Below are positions 19,480 to 29,542 of a stretch of DNA of 64,000 nucleotides, in pieces. The position numbers and the translations under genes were made by a program. The DNA lies in NCBI GenBank assembly GCA_049967655.1, contig JBMFSH010000006.1:32001-96000 (forward strand), given 5' to 3'. How positions within the stretch are numbered: the stretch's first letter is position 1; every line of letters begins with the position of its first letter. The notes beneath the pieces are model-generated. The model searched no databases. It was not told the origin of the DNA and saw nothing but the letters and a program-made list of their open reading frames with translations. Origin of the DNA: Acidobacteriota bacterium (GTDB lineage: Bacteria; Acidobacteriota; UBA4820; DSQY01).

Positions 19480-19758
19480 CTATCGGTTATCGGGTGCCGG
19501 CGCGCTCTTTCCGTCACGCATCAACGGCCCCACCTGAAAAACCTTCACTTCTTGGGCCAGGCCCTGACAGCCCTTCTGAAGTGGGCACCTGCTGCACGCA
19601 CTGGTGCATCCTTCGGGGGACGGTGCGAGAAGCCCGCGTCTTTCGAGGTCCGCCAGCATGGCTGCCACCAGTTCCCGGCTTACACCCATGGCCTCGGCCA
19701 AGTCTCCCTCCGTATGAAGTCCGCCTTTCTTAAGAAGATTCAGCAACTGTGTCAGCAC
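19480..19758 (-). CDS. feoC: FeoC-like winged-helix protein with Cys cluster
   Basis: HTH LAEAMGVSRELVAAMLADLERRG + CTSACSRCP..C; GTG start overlaps the feoB stop. Confidence 0.75.
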   Translation of the reverse strand: MLTQLLNLLKKGGLHTEGDLAEAMGVSRELVAAMLADLERRGLLAPSPEGCTSACSRCPLQKGCQGLAQEVKVFQVGPLMRDGKSAPAPDNR

Positions 19759-21812
19759 CAGAGTGCTCCCAGGCGAAACACAACGATCCCCGCCAGAATG
19801 GAGAGAGCTAGCAGCAAGAGAATGCTCACGAACGCCCACCGCCAACCTGCCTCCTGCTTGGTGGCCGCTACGGTGGAAACGCAGGGCAGAAAGGTCATTT
19901 GGACGACCAGAAACGCAAGAGCGGCCTGAGGGGTCATGGCGGAGGCCACGAGATGACCGAGCCCGGCCCGGTCATCCCCGGCAGCAAAGAGGACTCCCAA
20001 GGTCGCCACGGAGTTCTCTTTGGCAATGAAGCTCGTGAGCAGCGACACCAGTAGCCGCCAATCCCCCAGCCCCATCCACCGTCCGAACGGCACGAGCCAG
20101 CGTCCAAAGTCCGCTAGCAGGCTGTGGTTCATACCGGGTCCGGGATAGGCGCTGAGAGCCCAGACCACGGCCGAGACCGCCACGATGACGGTACCAGCCT
20201 TTTTGAGAAACCCTTGGATGTTGTTCCACACGAAGAGGCCGATGGTGCGAAGGTTCGGGGCGTGGTAAAGAGGCATTTCCATGATGAAGGCGCCGCGATG
20301 GCCCTTGAAGGCGAACCGGTTGAGGAGGACACCCAAAAAGACGAGCAGAAGCAAGTTTCCCGCCACGAGAGCCGTCATCACCCATGCCGCCGTTCGGGGG
20401 AAGAACACGGGGGCCAGGAAGGCCACCACCGAAAGCCGGGCTGTGCAGGGCACGAGGGGCACCAGGAGCAGGGTCAAGAGCCGGGAGCGGCGGTCCTCGA
20501 TGATTCGGGTTCCCAGGACCGCGGGAATGTTGCAGCCGAAGCCGAGGAAGAGGGGCATGAAAGACTTTCCGTGGAGCCCAAGGCGATGCATGAAACGGTC
20601 CATGACGTAGGCCATGCGGGCCATGTACCCAACATCCTCCAGGAAGCCGAGAAGAGCGAAGAATACGAGTAGGATGGGCAGGAAGGTGATGACCATCCCG
20701 GCACCGCCAATGAGCCCGTCTGTGACGAACCCAGAAAGCCACCGGGGAGCGCTCAACAGGAGCCCTCCCACCCACGGTGCCAACGTCCCCAGCATCCAGT
20801 GATCCAGCAAGTTGACCATGGGAGTGGCGATGGTGTAGGTCAGCCAGAAGGTGGCGGCGAGAATGGAAAACAGGATCCCCACGCCCCACAGGGGATGGGT
20901 GGCGAAGCGGTCGATGCGGTCCGTTATGGTAATGACGCCGGCCTTCGGGCGGGTGAGAGCAGCCCTAGCCATGCGGGCAATCCACTCGTAGCGGCCACCC
21001 GCAATATCAATGTAGGCATCCTCGTGGGCCATGAGGAGGGGGTGGATGCGCTGCCAAGCCCCGGGGGCCTTTTCTTGAACCATCCGGCTCAGCTCCGCAT
21101 CGCCCTCCAAGACTTTCATGGCCACGTAAGCGGGGGAATAAGGATCGGGAAGCTGGCCCTCGAGGGCCTCCTCGATGGCTTTCAGGATGGGACGATGGGC
21201 CTCTCGAATGGAGGGCATCTGCGGCGCAAACCGGTCTGGGTGGCGCGCCAACTCCAGGGCCACGGCAAGAAGCTCCAAGAGCCCTTCGTTCTTGGATGCC
21301 ACCAAGGGAATAACGGGCAGATGCAGGGCTGCCGACAGGACATTCGGCTCCACCTTGATCCCCTGGGCTTCGGCCACATCGAGCATGTTGAGCCCCACCA
21401 CGATGGGCCTGTCCAGGAGCAGCAGCTCGGCCACAAGGTAGAGGTTTCGCTCCAGCGCTGAGGCGTTCAGAAGCGCCACGACCACATCGGGTCGCTCCTT
21501 CAGGATGTAGTCCCGGGCTATTCGCTCTTCCTCCGAGTTAGCCGTGAGGCTGTAGGTACCGGGCAGATCTACAAGGCGGATGCGTTCTCCCTGAAAAGAA
21601 CATTCGCCCGTCTTCTGTTCCACCGTCTTGCCGGGCCAGTTCCCCACGTGCTGGCTCAGCCCCGTCAAGCGGTTGAAGACGGTCGACTTGCCTACGTTGG
21701 GCTGACCCGCCAGCGCAAGGGTGACGGCCGGTTTCGCGGCCGGCCCTCTCTCGGCTCCTCGAGCCGCTTGCCGGCCGCCGCTCGGCCGCTCGCCTCCGCA
21801 ATGGCCCTGCAT
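19752..21812 (-). CDS. feoB: Ferrous iron transporter B
   Basis: GQPNVGKS, VGNWPGKT, DLPG, NMLD, GFGCNIPA, PCTARL and FIMEMPLY motifs. Confidence 0.96.
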   Translation of the reverse strand: MQGHCGGERPSGGRQAARGAERGPAAKPAVTLALAGQPNVGKSTVFNRLTGLSQHVGNWPGKTVEQKTGECSFQGERIRLVDLPGTYSLTANSEEERIARDYILKERPDVVVALLNASALERNLYLVAELLLLDRPIVVGLNMLDVAEAQGIKVEPNVLSAALHLPVIPLVASKNEGLLELLAVALELARHPDRFAPQMPSIREAHRPILKAIEEALEGQLPDPYSPAYVAMKVLEGDAELSRMVQEKAPGAWQRIHPLLMAHEDAYIDIAGGRYEWIARMARAALTRPKAGVITITDRIDRFATHPLWGVGILFSILAATFWLTYTIATPMVNLLDHWMLGTLAPWVGGLLLSAPRWLSGFVTDGLIGGAGMVITFLPILLVFFALLGFLEDVGYMARMAYVMDRFMHRLGLHGKSFMPLFLGFGCNIPAVLGTRIIEDRRSRLLTLLLVPLVPCTARLSVVAFLAPVFFPRTAAWVMTALVAGNLLLLVFLGVLLNRFAFKGHRGAFIMEMPLYHAPNLRTIGLFVWNNIQGFLKKAGTVIVAVSAVVWALSAYPGPGMNHSLLADFGRWLVPFGRWMGLGDWRLLVSLLTSFIAKENSVATLGVLFAAGDDRAGLGHLVASAMTPQAALAFLVVQMTFLPCVSTVAATKQEAGWRWAFVSILLLLALSILAGIVVFRLGALWC

Positions 21813-22048
21813 CAGGCCTCCCTGGGCTCCACGAGGACCTTGACCGCCTGGCCGCGCCCCAGAGCGATGCGGGTGTCCCGCACAGAGACGATGAGCGGCC
21901 CCCGCCCGTAGTTCTGCAAGACCTCGACCATCGCTCCCACCGTGAGCCCAAGTCCTGCCAGTTTTTGGGTAAGGCCCCTCCCCCCTAAAAGGCGCTGGAC
22001 CGTACCTCTGGACCCCGGTGGGAAGGCGGTCAAAGGCCGCGTGTTCAT
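21812..22048 (-). CDS. feoA: Ferrous iron transport protein A
   Basis: KLAGLGLTVGA..GPLIVSVRDTRIALGRGQA; coupled to both neighbours. Confidence 0.9.
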   Translation of the reverse strand: MNTRPLTAFPPGSRGTVQRLLGGRGLTQKLAGLGLTVGAMVEVLQNYGRGPLIVSVRDTRIALGRGQAVKVLVEPREA

Positions 22049-22608
22049 GGGGCTTCCTTTCCATGGATCATGGTTCTCTTGCTGCGGGTGCTTACAACAG
22101 TTCGGCCGGCATCGGCCGCCACGGCGGGCACCGCGCACGTTTCGCACTCGGGGTACTGCCCTCGATGGGGGCAGGCGAAACCGGTTCCGGCGACCCAGAG
22201 AGGGGCGCCGCGTGGGCAGCGGCCCAGATAGTCGGCGAAGGCGCAAAAGCGCTCGATGACCGTCGCCGACAGAACGTGTTCCATTCGGCAGGCGGCCGCC
22301 TCGGCGCTCTCCTCACCCAGGAGCAGGACTGCCGTCAGGAATCGCTTGAGAACACGGTGGCGGCGCGCCACCTCTCCCGCGATCCGCTTGCCCGAGGGGG
22401 TCAGCGTCACCGTTCCGTATGGCTTGTAACAGACTAGGCGTTTCTCCTTCAGGATGCGCAGAGCCCCGGTGACCGATGGCTTGGATACCGAGAGCCGGCT
22501 GGAAATATGGCTGACGCGTGCCATTCCCGTTTCTCGCTCCAAGGCCAGGATCGCCTCCAGGTAATCTTCCAGGCTTTCTCCAAGTCCCAGCCCTGTCCTC
22601 TCGGTCAT
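22045..22608 (-). CDS. DtxR/MntR-family metal-dependent repressor
   Basis: SLEDYLEAI, VSKPSVT, RRHRVLKRFL and ACRMEHVLS motifs; Cys-rich tail. Confidence 0.92.
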   Translation of the reverse strand: MTERTGLGLGESLEDYLEAILALERETGMARVSHISSRLSVSKPSVTGALRILKEKRLVCYKPYGTVTLTPSGKRIAGEVARRHRVLKRFLTAVLLLGEESAEAAACRMEHVLSATVIERFCAFADYLGRCPRGAPLWVAGTGFACPHRGQYPECETCAVPAVAADAGRTVVSTRSKRTMIHGKEAP

Positions 22609-22633
22609 GGCCGCCTCCTTGTTCAGGTATCCT

Positions 22634-22662
22634 AATATAGTTAGGAGATACTAACTCGTCAA
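22634..22662 (-). promoter_or_regulatory. Promoter TTGACG-17-TATATT with DtxR-type palindrome AGTTAG-N6-CTAACT (22639-22656) in the spacer
   Basis: Read directly; TTAG..CTAA core as in DtxR/MntR operators. Confidence 0.7.
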
Positions 22663-22772
22663 GTGCGATGAGCCGGAGGAACGGCACGGGGCGAGTGTAG
22701 GGAACTCCTCCGGGACCACCTGGGGCTGTGGCGCGCTGCATCAAGCAAGGAGATAAGGAGGTAATTCAGGCC

Positions 22773-22809
22773 CGCTCATTGGGTGCGCTCATTGGGTCGC
22801 TCATTGGGT
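22773..22809 (+). repeat. Three tandem copies of CGCTCATTGGGT
   Basis: 22773-22784, 22786-22797, 22798-22809. Confidence 0.9.
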
Positions 22810-22813
22810 GCGT

Positions 22814-22873
22814 TTGCTTTCCTTCGCGGCGGACACTATAATAATGATGATAGCGATAATGATAATTGTTACC
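22814..22873 (+). promoter_or_regulatory. Promoter TTGCTT-17-TATAAT followed by a Fur-type box GATAATGATAATTGTTACC (22855-22873)
   Basis: 16/19 match to GATAATGATAATCATTATC; upstream of the Fur-family gene. Confidence 0.75.
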
Positions 22874-22890
22874 ATCATTGCGAGACCTTG

Positions 22891-23343
22891 ATGAGGTTCC
22901 CATCGGTGCCGAGGCCTTTTCAATACCGAGATTCCATCTTGGCCCTTTTGAAGGACAACCCGATCCACCCCACCGTGGACTGGATCCACGCTCAGCTCCG
23001 GCGGGGCCACCCGAGGGTGAGTCTGGCCACAGTGTACCGAACTCTCAAGACCCTCGTGGCGGATGGCACGCTGTGCGAGCTGCCCTTTGGGACAAGTGAG
23101 AGCCGGTTCGGGTTAACGCTAGAGCAGAAGCACTACCACTTCATCTGCGAACAATGCCACAAGATCTACGATCTTCCGACGCGCCCCAGAATGACTCTTG
23201 AACAATCCGTTCAGGCGGAGACGGGCCACCAGGTCCGCCGGCACACCATTGAATTTTACGGTATGTGCCGGGAGTGCGCCGAGGAACCAGCCTCGGTACC
23301 CTCCTCGCAAAGTACGCCGAAGCGAAAGGAGAAGACCCAATGA
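22891..23343 (+). CDS. Fur/PerR-family regulator
   Basis: HPT, VSLATVYRTL, HYHFICEQC and FYGMCREC motifs. Confidence 0.9.
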   Translation: MRFPSVPRPFQYRDSILALLKDNPIHPTVDWIHAQLRRGHPRVSLATVYRTLKTLVADGTLCELPFGTSESRFGLTLEQKHYHFICEQCHKIYDLPTRPRMTLEQSVQAETGHQVRRHTIEFYGMCRECAEEPASVPSSQSTPKRKEKTQ

Positions 23344-23762
23344 AACTCACCAAGAAGGCTCTGCTTAAGGAATTGAACAAGGACTTGGAATGGGAATACG
23401 CCGCCGCCATCCAGTACGTCCAGCACGCGGCCCTCATCACCGGCCCCGAGTACGAAAGCATCACGAAGGAAATCCTTGTCCACAGTCAGGAGGAGATGCA
23501 ACACGCCGTCTCCCTGTCTGATCAGATCGCGTTCCTGGGAGGAATTCCAACGGTGGATGTGGAGCGCCGGGATGTCTCCTCCGACAGCAAAAAGATGCTC
23601 GAACAGGACCTTTGGGGAGAGGATAACGCCATCACTCGCTACAAGGAGCGGATCGGGCAAGCCGAAGCCCTCAAAGAGTACGGTTTGAGGCGGGCTCTCG
23701 AGGACATTCTCCTCATGGAAGAGGAGCACAAGCGCGATCTGCTCACCGTATTGCGCAAATAA
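23340..23762 (+). CDS. Ferritin-like (bacterioferritin/DPS-like) protein
   Basis: EY.AAIQY, EEMQHA, E..AI.RY and EEEH di-iron motifs. Confidence 0.88.
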   Translation: MKLTKKALLKELNKDLEWEYAAAIQYVQHAALITGPEYESITKEILVHSQEEMQHAVSLSDQIAFLGGIPTVDVERRDVSSDSKKMLEQDLWGEDNAITRYKERIGQAEALKEYGLRRALEDILLMEEEHKRDLLTVLRK

Positions 23763-23938
23763 CAGCGGTTGCCACGTGCAAGAGAGCCACTCATGCGGCA
23801 GCAGAGCTGACGTGAGGAAGGTGAAACGCCCTACGGAGATTGTCCCCGCAACGTTATGTCGCGGCATGCGTTTCGTCCCTTCCCTCCACCCTCCACGCTT
23901 CGCTCTCCTCGCGAAAATGGCCATTCCGATTTCCCGAT

Positions 23939-24110
23939 GGCTTGGAGACGGGCGCCAGGCGCGGTGAGATCCTGGGGCTCCGCTGGGCGGACGTGGAACC
24001 CGCCAGCAGGGTAGCCGCCCTCGACGGAACCCTGGCCAAGGCCCAGAGAACCCGCCACATCTTCCTGAACGAGAGCGTCGTCGCGGTCCTGGACACCCTC
24101 AAGTCGCGGA
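23939..24110 (+). pseudogene. Tyrosine recombinase/integrase remnant
   Basis: LETGARRGEILGLRWADV...K..RTRHIFLN (box I region); no N-terminus and no HxxR/Tyr; about 80 bp from the tRNA 3' end. Confidence 0.8.
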
Positions 24111-24190
24111 AAAGTTGCAATGCGAAAGCGGCCCCTTGCGAGGCCGCCTCTGAAGCTTCTTCTAACTCTATGGAAATTAAGGGATAATTC

Positions 24191-24267
24191 TGGTCGGGAC
24201 GACTGGATTTGAACCAGCGACCCCTTGCACCCCAAGCAAGTGCGCTACCAGGCTGCGCCACGTCCCG
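24191..24267 (-). tRNA. tRNA-Pro (GGG)
   Basis: CGGGACGTGGCGCAGCCTGGTAGCGCACTTGCTTGGGGTGCAAGGGGTCGCTGGTTCAAATCCAGTCGTCCCGACCA; cloverleaf with encoded CCA. Confidence 0.97.
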
Positions 24268-24326
24268 ACCGGCCGACTCGGGGCCGAAGCTCCAAACCGG
24301 CACGGGATTTATACCACGGGGGCGCG

Positions 24327-24734
24327 TCACCTGTCAAAAGGGGAAGGGCGGCTCAACAAGGAGCTCAGCCGGGAGAGCCCCTCCCGAAGCCGGCCCAGCA
24401 CCTCTCCCGGCTCGCGCTGCTGAAGGGCCTCTCCCCTGACCTTGCGGGTCGACGAGAGAAAGTCCCGCGCTCCGCGGAGCGTGAACTTCTTCTCGTAGAG
24501 AAGCTCCTTGATCTGCAGAACGGCCTCGATGTCCCGCCTCCTGTAGAGCCGATGTCCCGATTGGGTCTTGTTGGGGCTCAACTGGGGGAACTGCTTCTCC
24601 CAGAACCTCAGGACGTGTGAGGGAACGCCGGTAATGTCGCAGACCTCGCCGATCTTGTAGTAGAGCTTCTGCGGGACCTGCTCCAAGGAGAAACGGGGCC
24701 CGGCCTCGCTTCTTTTTCTGGCCGCATTTTTCAT
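24327..24734 (-). CDS. MerR-family HTH regulator
   Basis: KLYYKIGEV..HVLRFWEKQFPQLSP.K..GHRLY; typical IHF-MerR-tRNA-Pro synteny. Confidence 0.9.
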   Translation of the reverse strand: MKNAARKRSEAGPRFSLEQVPQKLYYKIGEVCDITGVPSHVLRFWEKQFPQLSPNKTQSGHRLYRRRDIEAVLQIKELLYEKKFTLRGARDFLSSTRKVRGEALQQREPGEVLGRLREGLSRLSSLLSRPSPFDR

Positions 24735-25009
24735 GGATTCTTTCCGCCTGGCCACTTTCGCGACGGCACGAAGACGACGGTCTTGCGCGAGGGTATTCGC
24801 ACCGGGGTCCCCTTTCCCATGTCCCGCCCCATCCGCGCCTTCCTCTCGACCACCTTGAAGGTGCCGAAACCCGAAATGACCAGCCTCCCCGTTTCCGAGA
24901 GCCCGGAGGTCATCCCCTGAATGACCTCTTCGACCAGCACTTGGGCCGCCTGGTAGGTGATGCCGCCATGGGCCATGTAGACCCGCCTGGCCAGTTCCGC
25001 GCGCGTCAT
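24731..25009 (-). CDS. HU/IHF-family DNA-binding protein
   Basis: MTRAEL, ISGFGTFKV, RKARMGR and VVFVPS motifs. Confidence 0.9.
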   Translation of the reverse strand: MTRAELARRVYMAHGGITYQAAQVLVEEVIQGMTSGLSETGRLVISGFGTFKVVERKARMGRDMGKGTPVRIPSRKTVVFVPSRKWPGGKNP

Positions 25010-25156
25010 AACGCCTCCCTTGTGCAGATTATATACCACAACCCCCTCACTTTCAATGAAAAAGGCTTCGCCGCCACGGGGCGCAAGCAAAGTGGTCGCA
25101 GTAGCCGTGAACAGAGAATCCAGCCACTGGTAACGGGCGGCTCCATCGAGGATGAA

Positions 25157-26079: not shown

Positions 26080-26109
26080 TTGACAGGGGGGGGGCGGCGG
26101 GTGTAGAGT
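26080..26109 (+). promoter_or_regulatory. Promoter TTGACA-18-TAGAGT with a G9 tract in the spacer
   Basis: TTGACA GGGGGGGGG CGGCGGGTG TAGAGT upstream of the lipoprotein gene. Confidence 0.6.
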
Positions 26110-26289
26110 TCATGGCCGTGAGAATCCCCCGAACATACGGGGGGGCAGGGTGTGAGAACTTATGTTCTTGTGCGCTCCCGAGGTCGACCCAGAGAATCCA
26201 GCCCCCCGGCGCGAAATGAGCCTACAAGTTTCGGCATAAGATGGCTTATGCCGGTAGTCCGGTTTTTGCTTGGAAAGGAGAGAAGGAAA

Positions 26290-26916
26290 ATGAGAAAGCT
26301 CACCGCTAGCCTCCTGGTTCTGGCCCTTGCTGCGCTGGTTGCCTGCGCCAAGCCGCCGCAGCAGCAGATCGACGCCGCCAAGGCCGCCCTCCAGGCCGCC
26401 AAGGCCGCCCAGGCCGACGTTTACGCCCCCGACGCCCTCAAGGCCGCCGAGGACAAGGCTGCCGCCCTGGACACTGAACTCGCCGCTCAGCAGAGCAAGT
26501 TCTTCAAGAGCTACAAGGTGGCCACCCAGCTGACCACCGAGTTGCAGCAGCTGGCCGACACGGCCAAGCAGGACGCCATCGCCGGCAAGGCGAAGGCCAA
26601 GGCCGATGCTGAAGCTTCCATCACCGCCGCCGACGCTTCCGTCACCGCCGCACGCGAAGCCCTGAAGACCGCCCCCAAGGGCAAGGGCTCCAAGGCTGAT
26701 CTTGAAGCCATGACCAAGGACGTCGACGATGCCGCCGCGGCCATCGAGACCGCCAAGTCCGACGCCACCGCCGAGAAGTACATGGAAGCCAAGACCACGG
26801 CCGACAGCGCCAAGGCTAAGGCCGACAACGTCGTCCAGCAGGTCGAGCAGGCCAAGGCACTGAAAAAGAGCAGCATCCCTGCTCACAAGGCCCCGGCCCA
26901 CAAGGGAAAGAAGTAA
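26290..26916 (+). CDS. Ala/Lys-rich coiled-coil lipoprotein (DUF4398-like)
   Basis: Lipobox LVAC; helical heptads; strongly biased codons; ends ...PAHKGKK. Confidence 0.8.
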   Translation: MRKLTASLLVLALAALVACAKPPQQQIDAAKAALQAAKAAQADVYAPDALKAAEDKAAALDTELAAQQSKFFKSYKVATQLTTELQQLADTAKQDAIAGKAKAKADAEASITAADASVTAAREALKTAPKGKGSKADLEAMTKDVDDAAAAIETAKSDATAEKYMEAKTTADSAKAKADNVVQQVEQAKALKKSSIPAHKAPAHKGKK

Positions 26917-26932
26917 CCGTTTTCCCGCGAAG

Positions 26933-26965
26933 AAAAAGGGGGCGGCGTTGCCGCCCCCTTTTTTT
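26933..26965 (+). terminator. Rho-independent terminator
   Basis: AAAAAGGGGGCGGC-GTT-GCCGCCCCCTTTTTTT. Confidence 0.9.
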
Positions 26966-26976
26966 GGGGATCTGGT

Positions 26977-28128
26977 GTGAAGAAGCGGAAAACGACCCGT
27001 AGAATCATCCTGTTGATCATCCTGTGCGCCATCATCTGGTCCGCTTCGGAGTGGCTGGTCCCTCTCCTGGACGGGAGCCAATCCCCGCCCCTGGACCCCA
27101 CGGGGAAGGGAGCCGAGACCCTCCTCTTCGCCGCCCGGCGGGAGGGCGCCGAGCAGCTCTATCCGCAGCGATTTATGGCGTGCCAGGACGCTCTTAAGGA
27201 GGCACGCTTCGAAACCAACCTCCAGCTGGCTTCCCAGTGGGGGACCAGAGATTTCGTCCGGCCCCAGCGCCTCCTGGACGAAGCCCAGGCCCAAGCCTTC
27301 GGTCTTTGGAAGGACGCCGTTGAGCACAGGCGCGAGGTGAGACCGGAGGCGGAGGCCATGATCGCCAGGGCCGACGACTCGCTTCAAAGAAGCGAGGAGG
27401 TGGCCGACCTCAGCCGCCAGGACTATTACACGCGAGGGCACCTGGCCACGGCATTCATGCTGCTTCACCAAGCCCAGTCCTACTATGGCGCTGGCCAGTA
27501 CGACAGGGCCCTCTCCGCCGCAAGCAGCTCTCTGGAGAACAGCAGCAGGGCCCTCAGCCGGTCTCGCGAATACCTGGAGCGCTTCGATGACCCCCACCAT
27601 CTTCGGCTGTGGGAGTTGTGGATCCGCGAGGCGGTCGCCTCATCGAGGAGCACCGGGATTGCCTTCGTGGTGATCAAGGAGAAACACAGGCTGGATGTCT
27701 ACAAGAACGGCCGTCTCGCCCAGTCGTTCCCCGTCGATCTCGGTGCCAATTCCGTGAGCCAGAAGGAGAGGGCCGGAGACAGAGCCACTCCCGAGGGGCT
27801 GTACCGCATCATCCGAAAGAAGGGCCGGGGGGCCACCAAGTACGGGCTCGCGCTCCTCCTCAACTACCCGAACGAAGAGGACCGCCGGCGGTTCGCCGAG
27901 ATGAAGGCCCGTGGGCAGTTGACGCGCCGCACTGGCATCGGTGGCCTCATCGAGATACACGGAACGGGGGGCAGGGGCTATGATTGGACCGACGGATGCA
28001 TAGCCCCGAATGACGAGAACATGGAAAGGCTGTATCATGAGGCGGTGATCGGGACGGTGGTGGCCATCGTGGGCAGCGACGGCAGCGGAGGCCCGATCCG
28101 ATCGGCTCTGATGGAAACGAGGCGATGA
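26977..28128 (+). CDS. L,D-transpeptidase (YkuD) with N-terminal helical domain
   Basis: GDRATPEG, LLNYPN and IEIHG...WTDGCIA motifs. Confidence 0.88.
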   Translation: MKKRKTTRRIILLIILCAIIWSASEWLVPLLDGSQSPPLDPTGKGAETLLFAARREGAEQLYPQRFMACQDALKEARFETNLQLASQWGTRDFVRPQRLLDEAQAQAFGLWKDAVEHRREVRPEAEAMIARADDSLQRSEEVADLSRQDYYTRGHLATAFMLLHQAQSYYGAGQYDRALSAASSSLENSSRALSRSREYLERFDDPHHLRLWELWIREAVASSRSTGIAFVVIKEKHRLDVYKNGRLAQSFPVDLGANSVSQKERAGDRATPEGLYRIIRKKGRGATKYGLALLLNYPNEEDRRRFAEMKARGQLTRRTGIGGLIEIHGTGGRGYDWTDGCIAPNDENMERLYHEAVIGTVVAIVGSDGSGGPIRSALMETRR

Positions 28129-28859
28129 GCGACAACGACACCGATCACTCTTCTCCCCTTTTGCGCGGCATCGAATCGACCAAGAAGGAGCACGCGAGGC
28201 GTGTCCGCCGCACCGTCCTGGTCCTCCTCATCGGCACCGGTCTGCTTTGCGCGGCCGTCGTCCTCTTCGTGCTGTCGACGGGATACGGCTACGCGGACCT
28301 GAATGCGGCCTACATCTCCCGGCACAGCATGGAGGTGCCTCAGACGGGGCCGGTACTGCCCGAGAAGATCCTGGATATGGCCGAAAAGAAACTGGACCAA
28401 GTGAGGCCCAAGGGCATTTTCGTGGTGGTGGACCACATTCGCAACCACCTCTACCTGCGCGACGGAGACAAGGTCATCCTCGATGCCCTCTGCTCGGCCG
28501 GAGCTGGAACTTTGCTGACCGATCCGAAATCGGACCGCCACTGGGTATTCGACACACCCGTGGGCCGTTTCTTCGTCCGGGACAAGCGCAAGGATCCCAC
28601 TTGGACGGCGCCCGATTGGGACTACATCGAATCGGGCGAACCCTTTCCCAAGAACTATGCGGACCGAGTGCAGGAGGGGATGCTGGGTGAGTACGCCCTG
28701 GATTTGGGCGGAGGACCGTCGGGCTACATGATCCATGGCACGCTCTACACCCGCCTCCTGGGACGCAATGTGAGCCACGGGTGCGTAAGGGTCGGGCGGG
28801 ACGACCTCCGCATCATCTGGCAGAAGGTGCCCGTCGGGGCCACGGTGTTCATGTACTGA
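28125..28859 (+). CDS. L,D-transpeptidase (YkuD), membrane-anchored
   Basis: FDTPVG, P.W..PDW and YMIHGT...VSHGCVR motifs. Confidence 0.92.
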   Translation: MSDNDTDHSSPLLRGIESTKKEHARRVRRTVLVLLIGTGLLCAAVVLFVLSTGYGYADLNAAYISRHSMEVPQTGPVLPEKILDMAEKKLDQVRPKGIFVVVDHIRNHLYLRDGDKVILDALCSAGAGTLLTDPKSDRHWVFDTPVGRFFVRDKRKDPTWTAPDWDYIESGEPFPKNYADRVQEGMLGEYALDLGGGPSGYMIHGTLYTRLLGRNVSHGCVRVGRDDLRIIWQKVPVGATVFMY

Positions 28860-29542
28860 TGAAAAAACGACTGCTTTCTCTCGCATTCCTGGCGATCTCC
28901 GTGGTTGCCCTGGCCGGGGTCGTTCGGGTGCTGGCCCAGGCCGAGCCTTCGCAGGAGCCCCTGCCCCTCCGCGCCGCCCTGGCCGAACAGGAGGCCAGGC
29001 TGGCCACCTCGAACACCTTCTACCTCGAACTGGATCTCTCCCATCCTGCCATCAAGCTCTGCCATTCGGGAGTGGCCCTTGCTACCTATCCGATCGACTC
29101 CCTCAAGGTGGGGTATCCACGCATCTTCTTCTTCCCCCGGATGCATGAGGGGAAATGGATCGGCGAAATCTGGACCGGGGGCCACCTCATACCCCCGAAG
29201 ATCATCAACCGGATCCGCATCACGCCGGGAAGCGTGCCTTCGGCTGAAATCGCGGTTCCCGCCTTGATTCCGCCGACCATGTCCGATCTGATCCCCGTTC
29301 CACCCGTCTACACCATCGTTTTCGACGGCGGGAGAGTCATCCGCGTAACTCTGGTCGGAAAGATCACCGGAGCCGTCGGCCAGCCTGACAAGGAGCGGGG
29401 TTGGTGGGCGGACTTCTTGGCGGGTCTGGGCGTCCGGAGGGCGGACTCACTCCGCATCAGCGCCAGCATGCCGGCCAACGACGGGGCCGCCCTCTTCCGG
29501 TCCTTTCCCGACAAGCCTCCAGAACTCCTGATCCTACCGTAG
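28859..29542 (+). CDS. Degenerate YkuD-like protein without catalytic His/Cys
   Basis: Signal/TM segment; FYLELDLS...IKL.HSGV.L..YPI start resembles YkuD; no HG..GC; TGATG coupling. Confidence 0.5.
   Translation: MKKRLLSLAFLAISVVALAGVVRVLAQAEPSQEPLPLRAALAEQEARLATSNTFYLELDLSHPAIKLCHSGVALATYPIDSLKVGYPRIFFFPRMHEGKWIGEIWTGGHLIPPKIINRIRITPGSVPSAEIAVPALIPPTMSDLIPVPPVYTIVFDGGRVIRVTLVGKITGAVGQPDKERGWWADFLAGLGVRRADSLRISASMPANDGAALFRSFPDKPPELLILP

Follow-up and report, generated by a model that had tools for sequence, protein, structure and literature searches.

A run of four genes on the forward strand of a 64,000-nucleotide stretch of DNA from an Acidobacteriota bacterium (assembly GCA_049967655.1, contig JBMFSH010000006.1, positions 32,001 to 96,000; the whole stretch is referred to here as the window) is a real, conserved and dedicated module. 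It encodes a lipoprotein (LP), two enzymes of the YkuD family (E1 and E2) and a protein predicted to have the YkuD fold without its catalytic residues (X4). In its working parts the module is like the Lpp/LdtA-C/DpaA system; it does not belong to the Lpp family and is undescribed in the literature searched. LP probably evolved independently as a counterpart of Braun's lipoprotein of E. coli, stapled through an internal lysine. An earlier note on this DNA had proposed a tether linked through its C-terminal lysine, but the evidence on the acceptor points to the internal Lys132 rather than to the terminal residue. The genes are flanked by opposite-strand homologues of thiD and rsmA/ksgA, and stop and start codons overlap between the successive genes E1, E2 and X4. 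The features are as follows.

26080..26109, + strand: sigma-70-like promoter candidate (TTGACA-18-TAGAGT, consensus match 10/12), upstream of the LP gene
26290..26916, + strand: LP, a DUF4398-like rod lipoprotein of 208 amino acids, with predicted lipidated Cys19 and two predicted stacked three-helix bundles
26674..26688, + strand: PKGKG hairpin loop of LP (residues 129-133), with the codon of Lys132, the proposed acyl acceptor, at 26683-26685
26938..26965, + strand: hairpin resembling an intrinsic terminator, with a T-run, between the LP and enzyme genes
26977..28128, + strand: E1, 383 amino acids, with an N-terminal hydrophobic anchor, an LP-like rod (33-193) and a hydrolase-class YkuD domain
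28125..28859, + strand: E2, 244 amino acids, a transmembrane-anchored transpeptidase-class YkuD enzyme and predicted partner of LP
28859..29542, + strand: X4, 227 amino acids, an exported protein of predicted YkuD fold without catalytic His/Cys (putative pseudo-enzyme)

Conservation of the module was surveyed at loci anchored on E2, as a locus search from the LP alignment gave no seedable stretch. At least 581 relatives of E2 were found, the best 80 were fetched, and Bacteroidota loci fell outside the survey. The genome and locus sets used throughout are top-ranked, related and partly overlapping, and are not independent samples. LP, E1 and E2 stood in this order at 73/80 loci, the remaining seven ending upstream at a contig edge; all four genes were present at 64 loci, nine had LP-E1-E2 with X4 undetected, and seven were cut by the contig. 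The four genes occurred together in 26 of 41 genomes, in 24 of which they lay on the same contig in the same order. Hand counts across 301 genomes of the phylum gave a strong LP match (E<1e-39) in 77, with E2 in 77/77 of those, and a strong E2 match (E<=1e-47) in 79, of which 77 also had a strong LP. Record titles among the 80 loci include Thermoanaerobaculia, Aminicenantes, Vicinamibacterales, Terriglobia, Nitrospirae, Nitrospinota and Deltaproteobacteria, as well as Gemmatimonadota, Eisenbacteria and Gammaproteobacteria, and the nearest titled relative bears an Acidobacteria label (94% E2 identity). At six minimal loci (L123-L128) LP directly adjoins E2, and the E1 profile found no E1 in 5/5 genomes with such a minimal LP+E2 arrangement (95-99% complete), matching LP itself only, which makes LP plus E2 the core of the cassette. 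A full-text search found no account of the cassette, with most subscription papers and supplements outside its coverage. Six loci titled 'uncultured Eubacteriales' (L067, L087, L095, L099, L107, L120) carry the diderm-type cassette with Aminicenantes-like sequences, and these titles may be mislabelled.

The residue that stands out in LP lies in a loop within the protein. PxGK is present in 73/73 cassette copies, and Lys132 is the sole invariant lysine across the 72 aligned copies (72/72). Among 150 aligned diverse representatives, a few of which may be truncated, position 132 is Lys in 149, Glu in one and Arg in none; Arg is tolerated at Lys70, Lys100, Lys104, Lys170 and in the tail, and the neighbouring position 130 varies freely. 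That Lys132 is never Arg suggests a need for the chemistry of a primary amine and not for charge. Three of the minimal loci (L125-L127) have a one-residue insertion in the loop (PRRGK) with the lysine kept, all-Arg tails and no E1 found. From the weaker LP matches outside cassettes, 33 of about 55 were fetched; PxGK was present in 0/33 of these distant homologues, and no YkuD neighbour was detected within about 3 kb of them, some loci being cut short.

LP itself carries the lipobox LVA-C19, and its 190 mature residues end in PAHKAPAHKGKK, which agrees with the lipobox protein of about 190 residues described previously. The lipobox cysteine is conserved in 72/72 cassette copies and in all 147 ungapped rows of the diverse representatives, and the residue at +1 is Ala. 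The AlphaFold2 model of the monomer, with a predicted local distance difference test score (pLDDT) of 91.9, has helices at 24-39, 47-68, 76-126, 134-160 and 164-195, which fold back into a five-helix structure of two stacked three-helix bundles sharing a longest helix of ~7.5 nm. The prediction for LP is thus a DUF4398-type rod that is folded back on itself and ~8 nm long, and the helix order would place both the loop 129-133 and the C-terminus at the lipid-distal end. On this model the earlier idea of a coiled-coil tether exceeding Lpp in length was rejected, as the rod is predicted to fold back and to have a span near the distance between outer membrane and peptidoglycan in E. coli, given as roughly 85 Å in an excerpt of PMC12729407.

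The Pfam DUF4398 profile (PF14346) matches LP at E 0.007 with 17.3 bits, below the gathering cut-off of 27.9, and 26 of the 72 LP family members match it at E<=0.01. LP residues 20-120 superpose on 4fm3, the DUF4398 protein PA2901 of P. aeruginosa, with Z 11.5, a root-mean-square deviation (rmsd) of 3.0, 93 aligned residues and 27% identity, although the Z of this top structural match is below the ~13 advised for helical bundles. The part that superposes is the predicted first tier of LP, to which LP adds a second three-helix tier with the PxGK loop; the literature-search listings gave no function for DUF4398 or PA2901. Searching the PDB with the LP sequence gave nothing below E 0.015, and Foldseek gave nothing at or below E 1e-3 (the best, BB0323 at E 0.18, was not used). 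At E<=1e-30 the family comprises 309 clusters at 50% identity. No Pfam LPP (PF04728) match was found and BLASTP to E. coli Lpp gave E 0.43, which bears out the statement that the tether is not homologous to Lpp.

Several LP relatives fall outside the cassettes. L129-L132 are strong copies away from enzymes that keep PxGK and may be extra substrates, and L133 and L136-L139 are second LP paralogues in cassette genomes with a degenerate loop (e.g. Arg replacing Lys). L134, L135, L142, L143 and L162 are distant LP-like rods with extra fused C-terminal domains, that of L143 being what we take to be a look-alike of the TonB C-terminal domain.

Both E1 and E2 match the Pfam YkuD family (PF03734; E 1e-18 and 2e-17, respectively), and the two complete active sites reported before were found at His328/Cys341 in E1 and His204/Cys220 in E2. 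The catalytic residues of E2 also include Arg222, and Arg at Cys+2 is present in 80/80 copies. Excerpts of PMC8263019 describe this arginine as a mark of transpeptidases and its absence as a mark of DpaA and carboxypeptidases. The nearest solved relatives of E2 are L,D-transpeptidases, and E2 lies below the NCBIfam LdtA/B/C/E equivalog cut-offs (46, 37 and 37 bits vs 583, 517 and 480). Judged by its residues, E2 is a YkuD enzyme of the transpeptidase class.

A model of the E2 catalytic domain in complex with LP scored 0.65, and the best control 0.08. A score of 0.65 was reached by 116/157 solved complexes and 2/215 mismatched pairs, a calibration that was made on other alignments and is roughly applicable here. 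The runs share at least 80% of their contacts, the partner pLDDT is at least 89, and the two best runs have 68-71 confident contacts. On LP the modelled interface comprises 129-138, 140-141, 144, 184, 188, 191-192 and 194-197, and on E2 it comprises His204, Thr206-Leu211, Cys220 and Arg222. The best contacts join Leu207, Tyr208 and Arg210 of E2 with Asp137, Ala140 and Ala188 of LP. Six of the eight invariant LP positions, or a direct neighbour, are covered (Ala128 itself is not named), and the tail 198-208 is not named in the interface, though contact is not thereby excluded. It is therefore the loop, and not the tail, that is predicted to dock on the active-site face of E2.

E1 differs from E2 at the discriminating position, Cys+2 being Ala in 59, Ser in 17 and Gly in one of the 77 orthologues, and Arg in 0/77. 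Its GDxxTPEG/YPN/IHG..WTxGC signature was confirmed, and GDxxTPEG plus IHG..TxGC are both present in 72/77. The nearest solved relatives are DpaA, Pgp2 and Csd6. The suggested likeness to DpaA/LdtF holds for the hydrolase class, which E1 shares with these three, and does not extend to DpaA itself, as E1 scores 22.6 bits against the DpaA family NF040599 with its cut-off of 365. Like DpaA, Csd6 and Pgp2, E1 is without Arg at Cys+2 and keeps the equivalents of DpaA Lys83 (73/77) and Tyr109 (Tyr or Phe, 71/77). Unlike them, it does not have the DpaA cleft set of Tyr131, Lys130 and Gln86 (Tyr131 equivalent in 0/77, Gln86 equivalent in 1/77), it is without the Trp that carboxypeptidases have at position -2 from the catalytic His (0/77; Glu in 74/77), and it is fused to an LP-like rod. 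The residues were mapped via DpaA, Csd6 Trp158 corresponding to the DpaA Met133 position under a rule taken from an excerpt of PMC10653827. By these residues E1 is a hydrolase-class YkuD enzyme of its own subgroup, for which a detaching role may be one option among several.

The N-terminal domain of E1 is paralogous to LP (HHalign probability 98.1, E 1e-13, 160 columns) and is a rod without the loop, PxGK occurring in 2/77 E1 rod regions. By a strict pattern, at least 23/69 copies begin with a lipobox; others, including E1 of the window, have a hydrophobic segment without Cys. Among the E1 N-termini compared (L056-L120), those with a lipobox come from loci titled Nitrospirae, Aminicenantes and Deltaproteobacteria, so that one kind of rod is found with exchanged anchors. 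The helical part also matched XopF2 weakly in NCBIfam (E 0.043, 12.6 bits vs 600), which was put down to helical composition and rejected. Word-based homologue searches returned two proteins each for the E1 rod and X4.

X4 has no YkuD match by sequence in Pfam, NCBIfam, the PDB profile or HHalign. In Foldseek all rows listed for its model were YkuD structures, with a best E of 4e-3 and none reaching 1e-3, and the top 20 rows of VIA-align were of YkuD fold, the best with Z 6.9, rmsd 3.7 and 110 aligned residues, compared with Z 2.3 for the best unrelated structure. X4 is thus predicted, on modest scores, to have the YkuD beta-sandwich fold. The HG..GC motif is absent from 68/69 orthologue open reading frames, so the third YkuD-family gene without His/Cys stands as described, its fold being seen by structure only. 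The nearest named ESM Atlas cluster (score 0.79) is a lead only. Together, the locus survey and the catalytic residues bear out a dedicated, conserved module with transpeptidase-type, hydrolase-type and dead YkuD members.

The LP gene is followed by a hairpin with a 9-bp G+C stem and a run of seven T (26938-26965). The 62 nt from 26915 to 26976 fold with z = -5.1, and 0/200 shuffles were equally stable; the hairpin was missing from the consensus terminator-scan listing. This terminator-like hairpin agrees with the terminator of its own with which LP had been credited. Such a hairpin follows LP at 23/73 loci (13 of these being close kin), E1 at 0/73 and E2 at 1/72, which suggests an excess of LP over the enzymes, apt for a structural substrate.

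On balance it seems probable that E2 moves a tetrapeptide stem onto Lys132 of an outer-membrane-anchored LP, with E1 releasing or trimming and X4 assisting. With its lipid in the outer membrane, LP would hang as a rod of ~8 nm. A tetrapeptide stem and Cys220 of E2 would form an acyl-enzyme, from which the stem would be transferred to Lys132, and the invariant HGTLYxR segment of E2 may read the surface formed by Asp137, Asp144 and Ala188 of LP. The loop-less rod of E1 could set the height of its catalytic domain above its membrane, in an accessory role of link cleavage or stem trimming, and X4 may be a non-catalytic accessory subunit. The hairpin 3' of LP would raise LP abundance over that of the enzymes, and the basic tail of LP would merely add electrostatic contact.

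A number of points weigh against this. Lys132-Cys220 is not among the 25 best listed contacts, the two residues sharing interface membership only, and an invariant lysine at an active site would suit a regulator no less than a substrate. The genome has no Pfam YkuD matches besides E1 and E2, so that E2, the only Arg-type enzyme found, may be a general L,D-transpeptidase. The genome is 99% complete, with Mur ligases and two LolA-family genes present; a Pfam LPP search found no Lpp in it. Three OmpA/Pal-type domains score over cut-off, so there need be no covalent tether. The contrast between loop and enzyme is confounded, since the 33 loop-less homologues show greater divergence and some of them are close kin, and four strong LP paralogues without adjoining enzymes retain PxGK (E2 lies elsewhere in those genomes). 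The switching of the E1 anchor between lipobox and hydrophobic segment would fit an inner-membrane location, and the codon adaptation of LP is moderate only. Adjacency by itself, finally, proves nothing, as lpp of E. coli adjoins ldtE, whose product is a 3-3 cross-linker that does not attach Lpp according to an excerpt of PMC12729407.

The broad and stable modelled interface, with its best contacts on the helices flanking the loop, would also suit an LP that is a non-covalent partner of E2, whether activator, inhibitor or positioning arm. The loop lysine would then mimic an acceptor while E2, as the genome's only Arg-type YkuD enzyme found, makes 3-3 cross-links. LpoA and LpoB, lipoprotein activators of peptidoglycan synthases, are a precedent. 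We nevertheless consider this rather unlikely, since the strict Lys-not-Arg pattern is better explained by the need for a primary amine, and the LP excess suggested by the hairpin at 23/73 loci suits a structural substrate.

Transfer to Lys132 would also be compatible with an LP that is retained in the inner membrane, which it would then tether to the wall, the tip of LP and the catalytic domain of E1 then standing equally high on identical rods. E2 is transmembrane-anchored, and E1 has the same rod behind a lipobox (23/69) or a plain hydrophobic anchor, both in keeping with such a location. In E. coli, Asp after the lipidated Cys retains lipoproteins in the inner membrane. LP has Ala after Cys19 (the E. 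coli rule may not apply here), and the genome's two LolA-family genes also argue for the outer membrane, so that an inner-membrane LP is quite unlikely. Its precedent is OutB of Dickeya dadantii, a membrane-anchored protein for which excerpts of PMC12274547 describe an Ldt-made covalent link to peptidoglycan. OutB differs from what is proposed for LP in using an Lpp-like C-terminal Lys and the Lpp-attaching enzymes of the host (PMC12729407, in part).

Attachment through the C-terminal lysine in the manner of Lpp, as first suggested for this protein, has in its favour that the last residue is Lys in 47/73 cassette copies, that Lys occurs within the last five in 69/73, and that tail and loop would share one end of the rod. 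Lack of conservation of this lysine among homologues had been named as the first half of a refutation of the idea, and it is what was observed: Arg ends 23/73 cassette copies, Lys ends 70/120 sequence homologues and 42/150 diverse representatives, and 53/150 of the latter lack Lys throughout the last five. The PAHK repeat of the tail was seen in LP's own genus only, and the minimal loci L124-L127 end in RQR or RRRR. Basic tails are also found without enzymes, 17 of the 27 listed ends of distant homologues being Arg or Lys (counted by eye). The C-terminal lysine was rejected as acceptor on its non-conservation and on the absence of the tail from the confident interface with E2, and attachment through it is very improbable.

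It is scarcely probable that the acceptor to which E2 joins Lys132 is something else than the sacculus, or that the proteins form a stem-editing complex with E1 as L,D-carboxypeptidase and LP as scaffold: the carboxypeptidases Pgp2 and Csd6 are among the closest solved relatives of E1, and DpaA-like proteins may serve other roles in species without Lpp (PMC8263019, in part), but E1 has Glu in 74/77 where the carboxypeptidase Trp is expected and was not found in five LP+E2 genomes.

The reading of E2 as attaching Lys132 of LP to peptidoglycan invites comparison with known tethers. As in the E. coli system of Lpp, LdtA/B/C and DpaA (also LdtF or YafK), there is a helical rod that is anchored by lipid and spans a similar distance, with a Lys acceptor, proposed in the case of LP, and an Arg-type YkuD enzyme beside an Arg-less one of hydrolase type. 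In contrast to the single-helix trimer of Lpp, the predicted form of LP is a five-helix bundle that folds back on itself; LP is not homologous to Lpp, and the proposed acceptor is in an internal loop instead of at the C-terminus. The enzymes are also encoded in the cassette, the hydrolase bears a copy of the substrate rod, and there is an extra dead YkuD-fold protein. Peptidoglycan attachment through an internal Lys is described for Lys21 of Coxiella burnetii LimB (PMC12729407, PMC12274547), and through a non-terminal lysine for the Legionella fatty-acid transporter Lpg1810 (PMC11841132), in the excerpts of these papers; those on LimB call it Coxiella-specific and its attaching enzyme unknown. 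LP resembles both in its proposed use of a non-terminal lysine, and differs in that the site is a hairpin tip, the family spans several phyla and a candidate enzyme is co-encoded.

Lpp occurs only in a subclade of the Gammaproteobacteria according to the available part of bioRxiv 10.1101/2021.05.31.446380, and the other covalent tethers described in that of PMC12729407 belong to a few Proteobacteria, the enzyme being unknown for some of them. If the proposal is true, it would supply the substrate, residue, attaching enzyme and candidate releaser of a tether in 77/301 (about a quarter) of the sampled genomes of the Acidobacteriota phylum, and likewise in records of Nitrospirota, Nitrospinota, Desulfobacterota type and Gemmatimonadota. 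DUF4398-type lipoproteins would thereby gain their first function, and E2 would be a YkuD enzyme selective for a loop of a folded protein. A wider and more tentative proposal, possible rather than probable, is that of a widespread, self-contained covalent tether outside the Gammaproteobacteria. In it a dedicated transpeptidase would recognise a folded surface and ligate an internal hairpin Lys to peptidoglycan, the releaser would be mounted on a duplicate of the rod so that tether and editor have a common ruler placing the wall between the membranes, and a dead YkuD paralogue would regulate the two.

Expression signals around the LP gene are of modest strength. The 'strong codon bias' earlier attributed to LP turned out to be moderate: among 2173 crudely called genes its ribosomal-like codon use is at the 77th percentile (88th for the mature part), compared with 31-51 for E1, E2 and X4 and 99.6 for tuf. 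In one of three metatranscriptome runs, two contigs 95-96% alike to the window covered 26137-26749 (depth 87) and 28022-28205 (depth 26); with a share of words of 0.05 these cannot rank genes, and the uncovered parts carry no meaning. That one contig begins at 26137 is a weak hint for the promoter candidate, as contigs cannot show a transcript start.

The four genes have neighbours that we take to include an iron/manganese cluster at 19752-23762, with FeoB-, FeoA- and DtxR/MntR-like genes on the - strand and Fur-like and ferritin-like genes on the + strand. At 23840-24330 a short frame that looks like the C-terminus of a tyrosine integrase lies beside a tRNA-like sequence, possibly what is left of an integration site. 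It is followed on the - strand at 24327-25090 by what we take to be an HU/IHF-like gene and then a MerR-like regulator.

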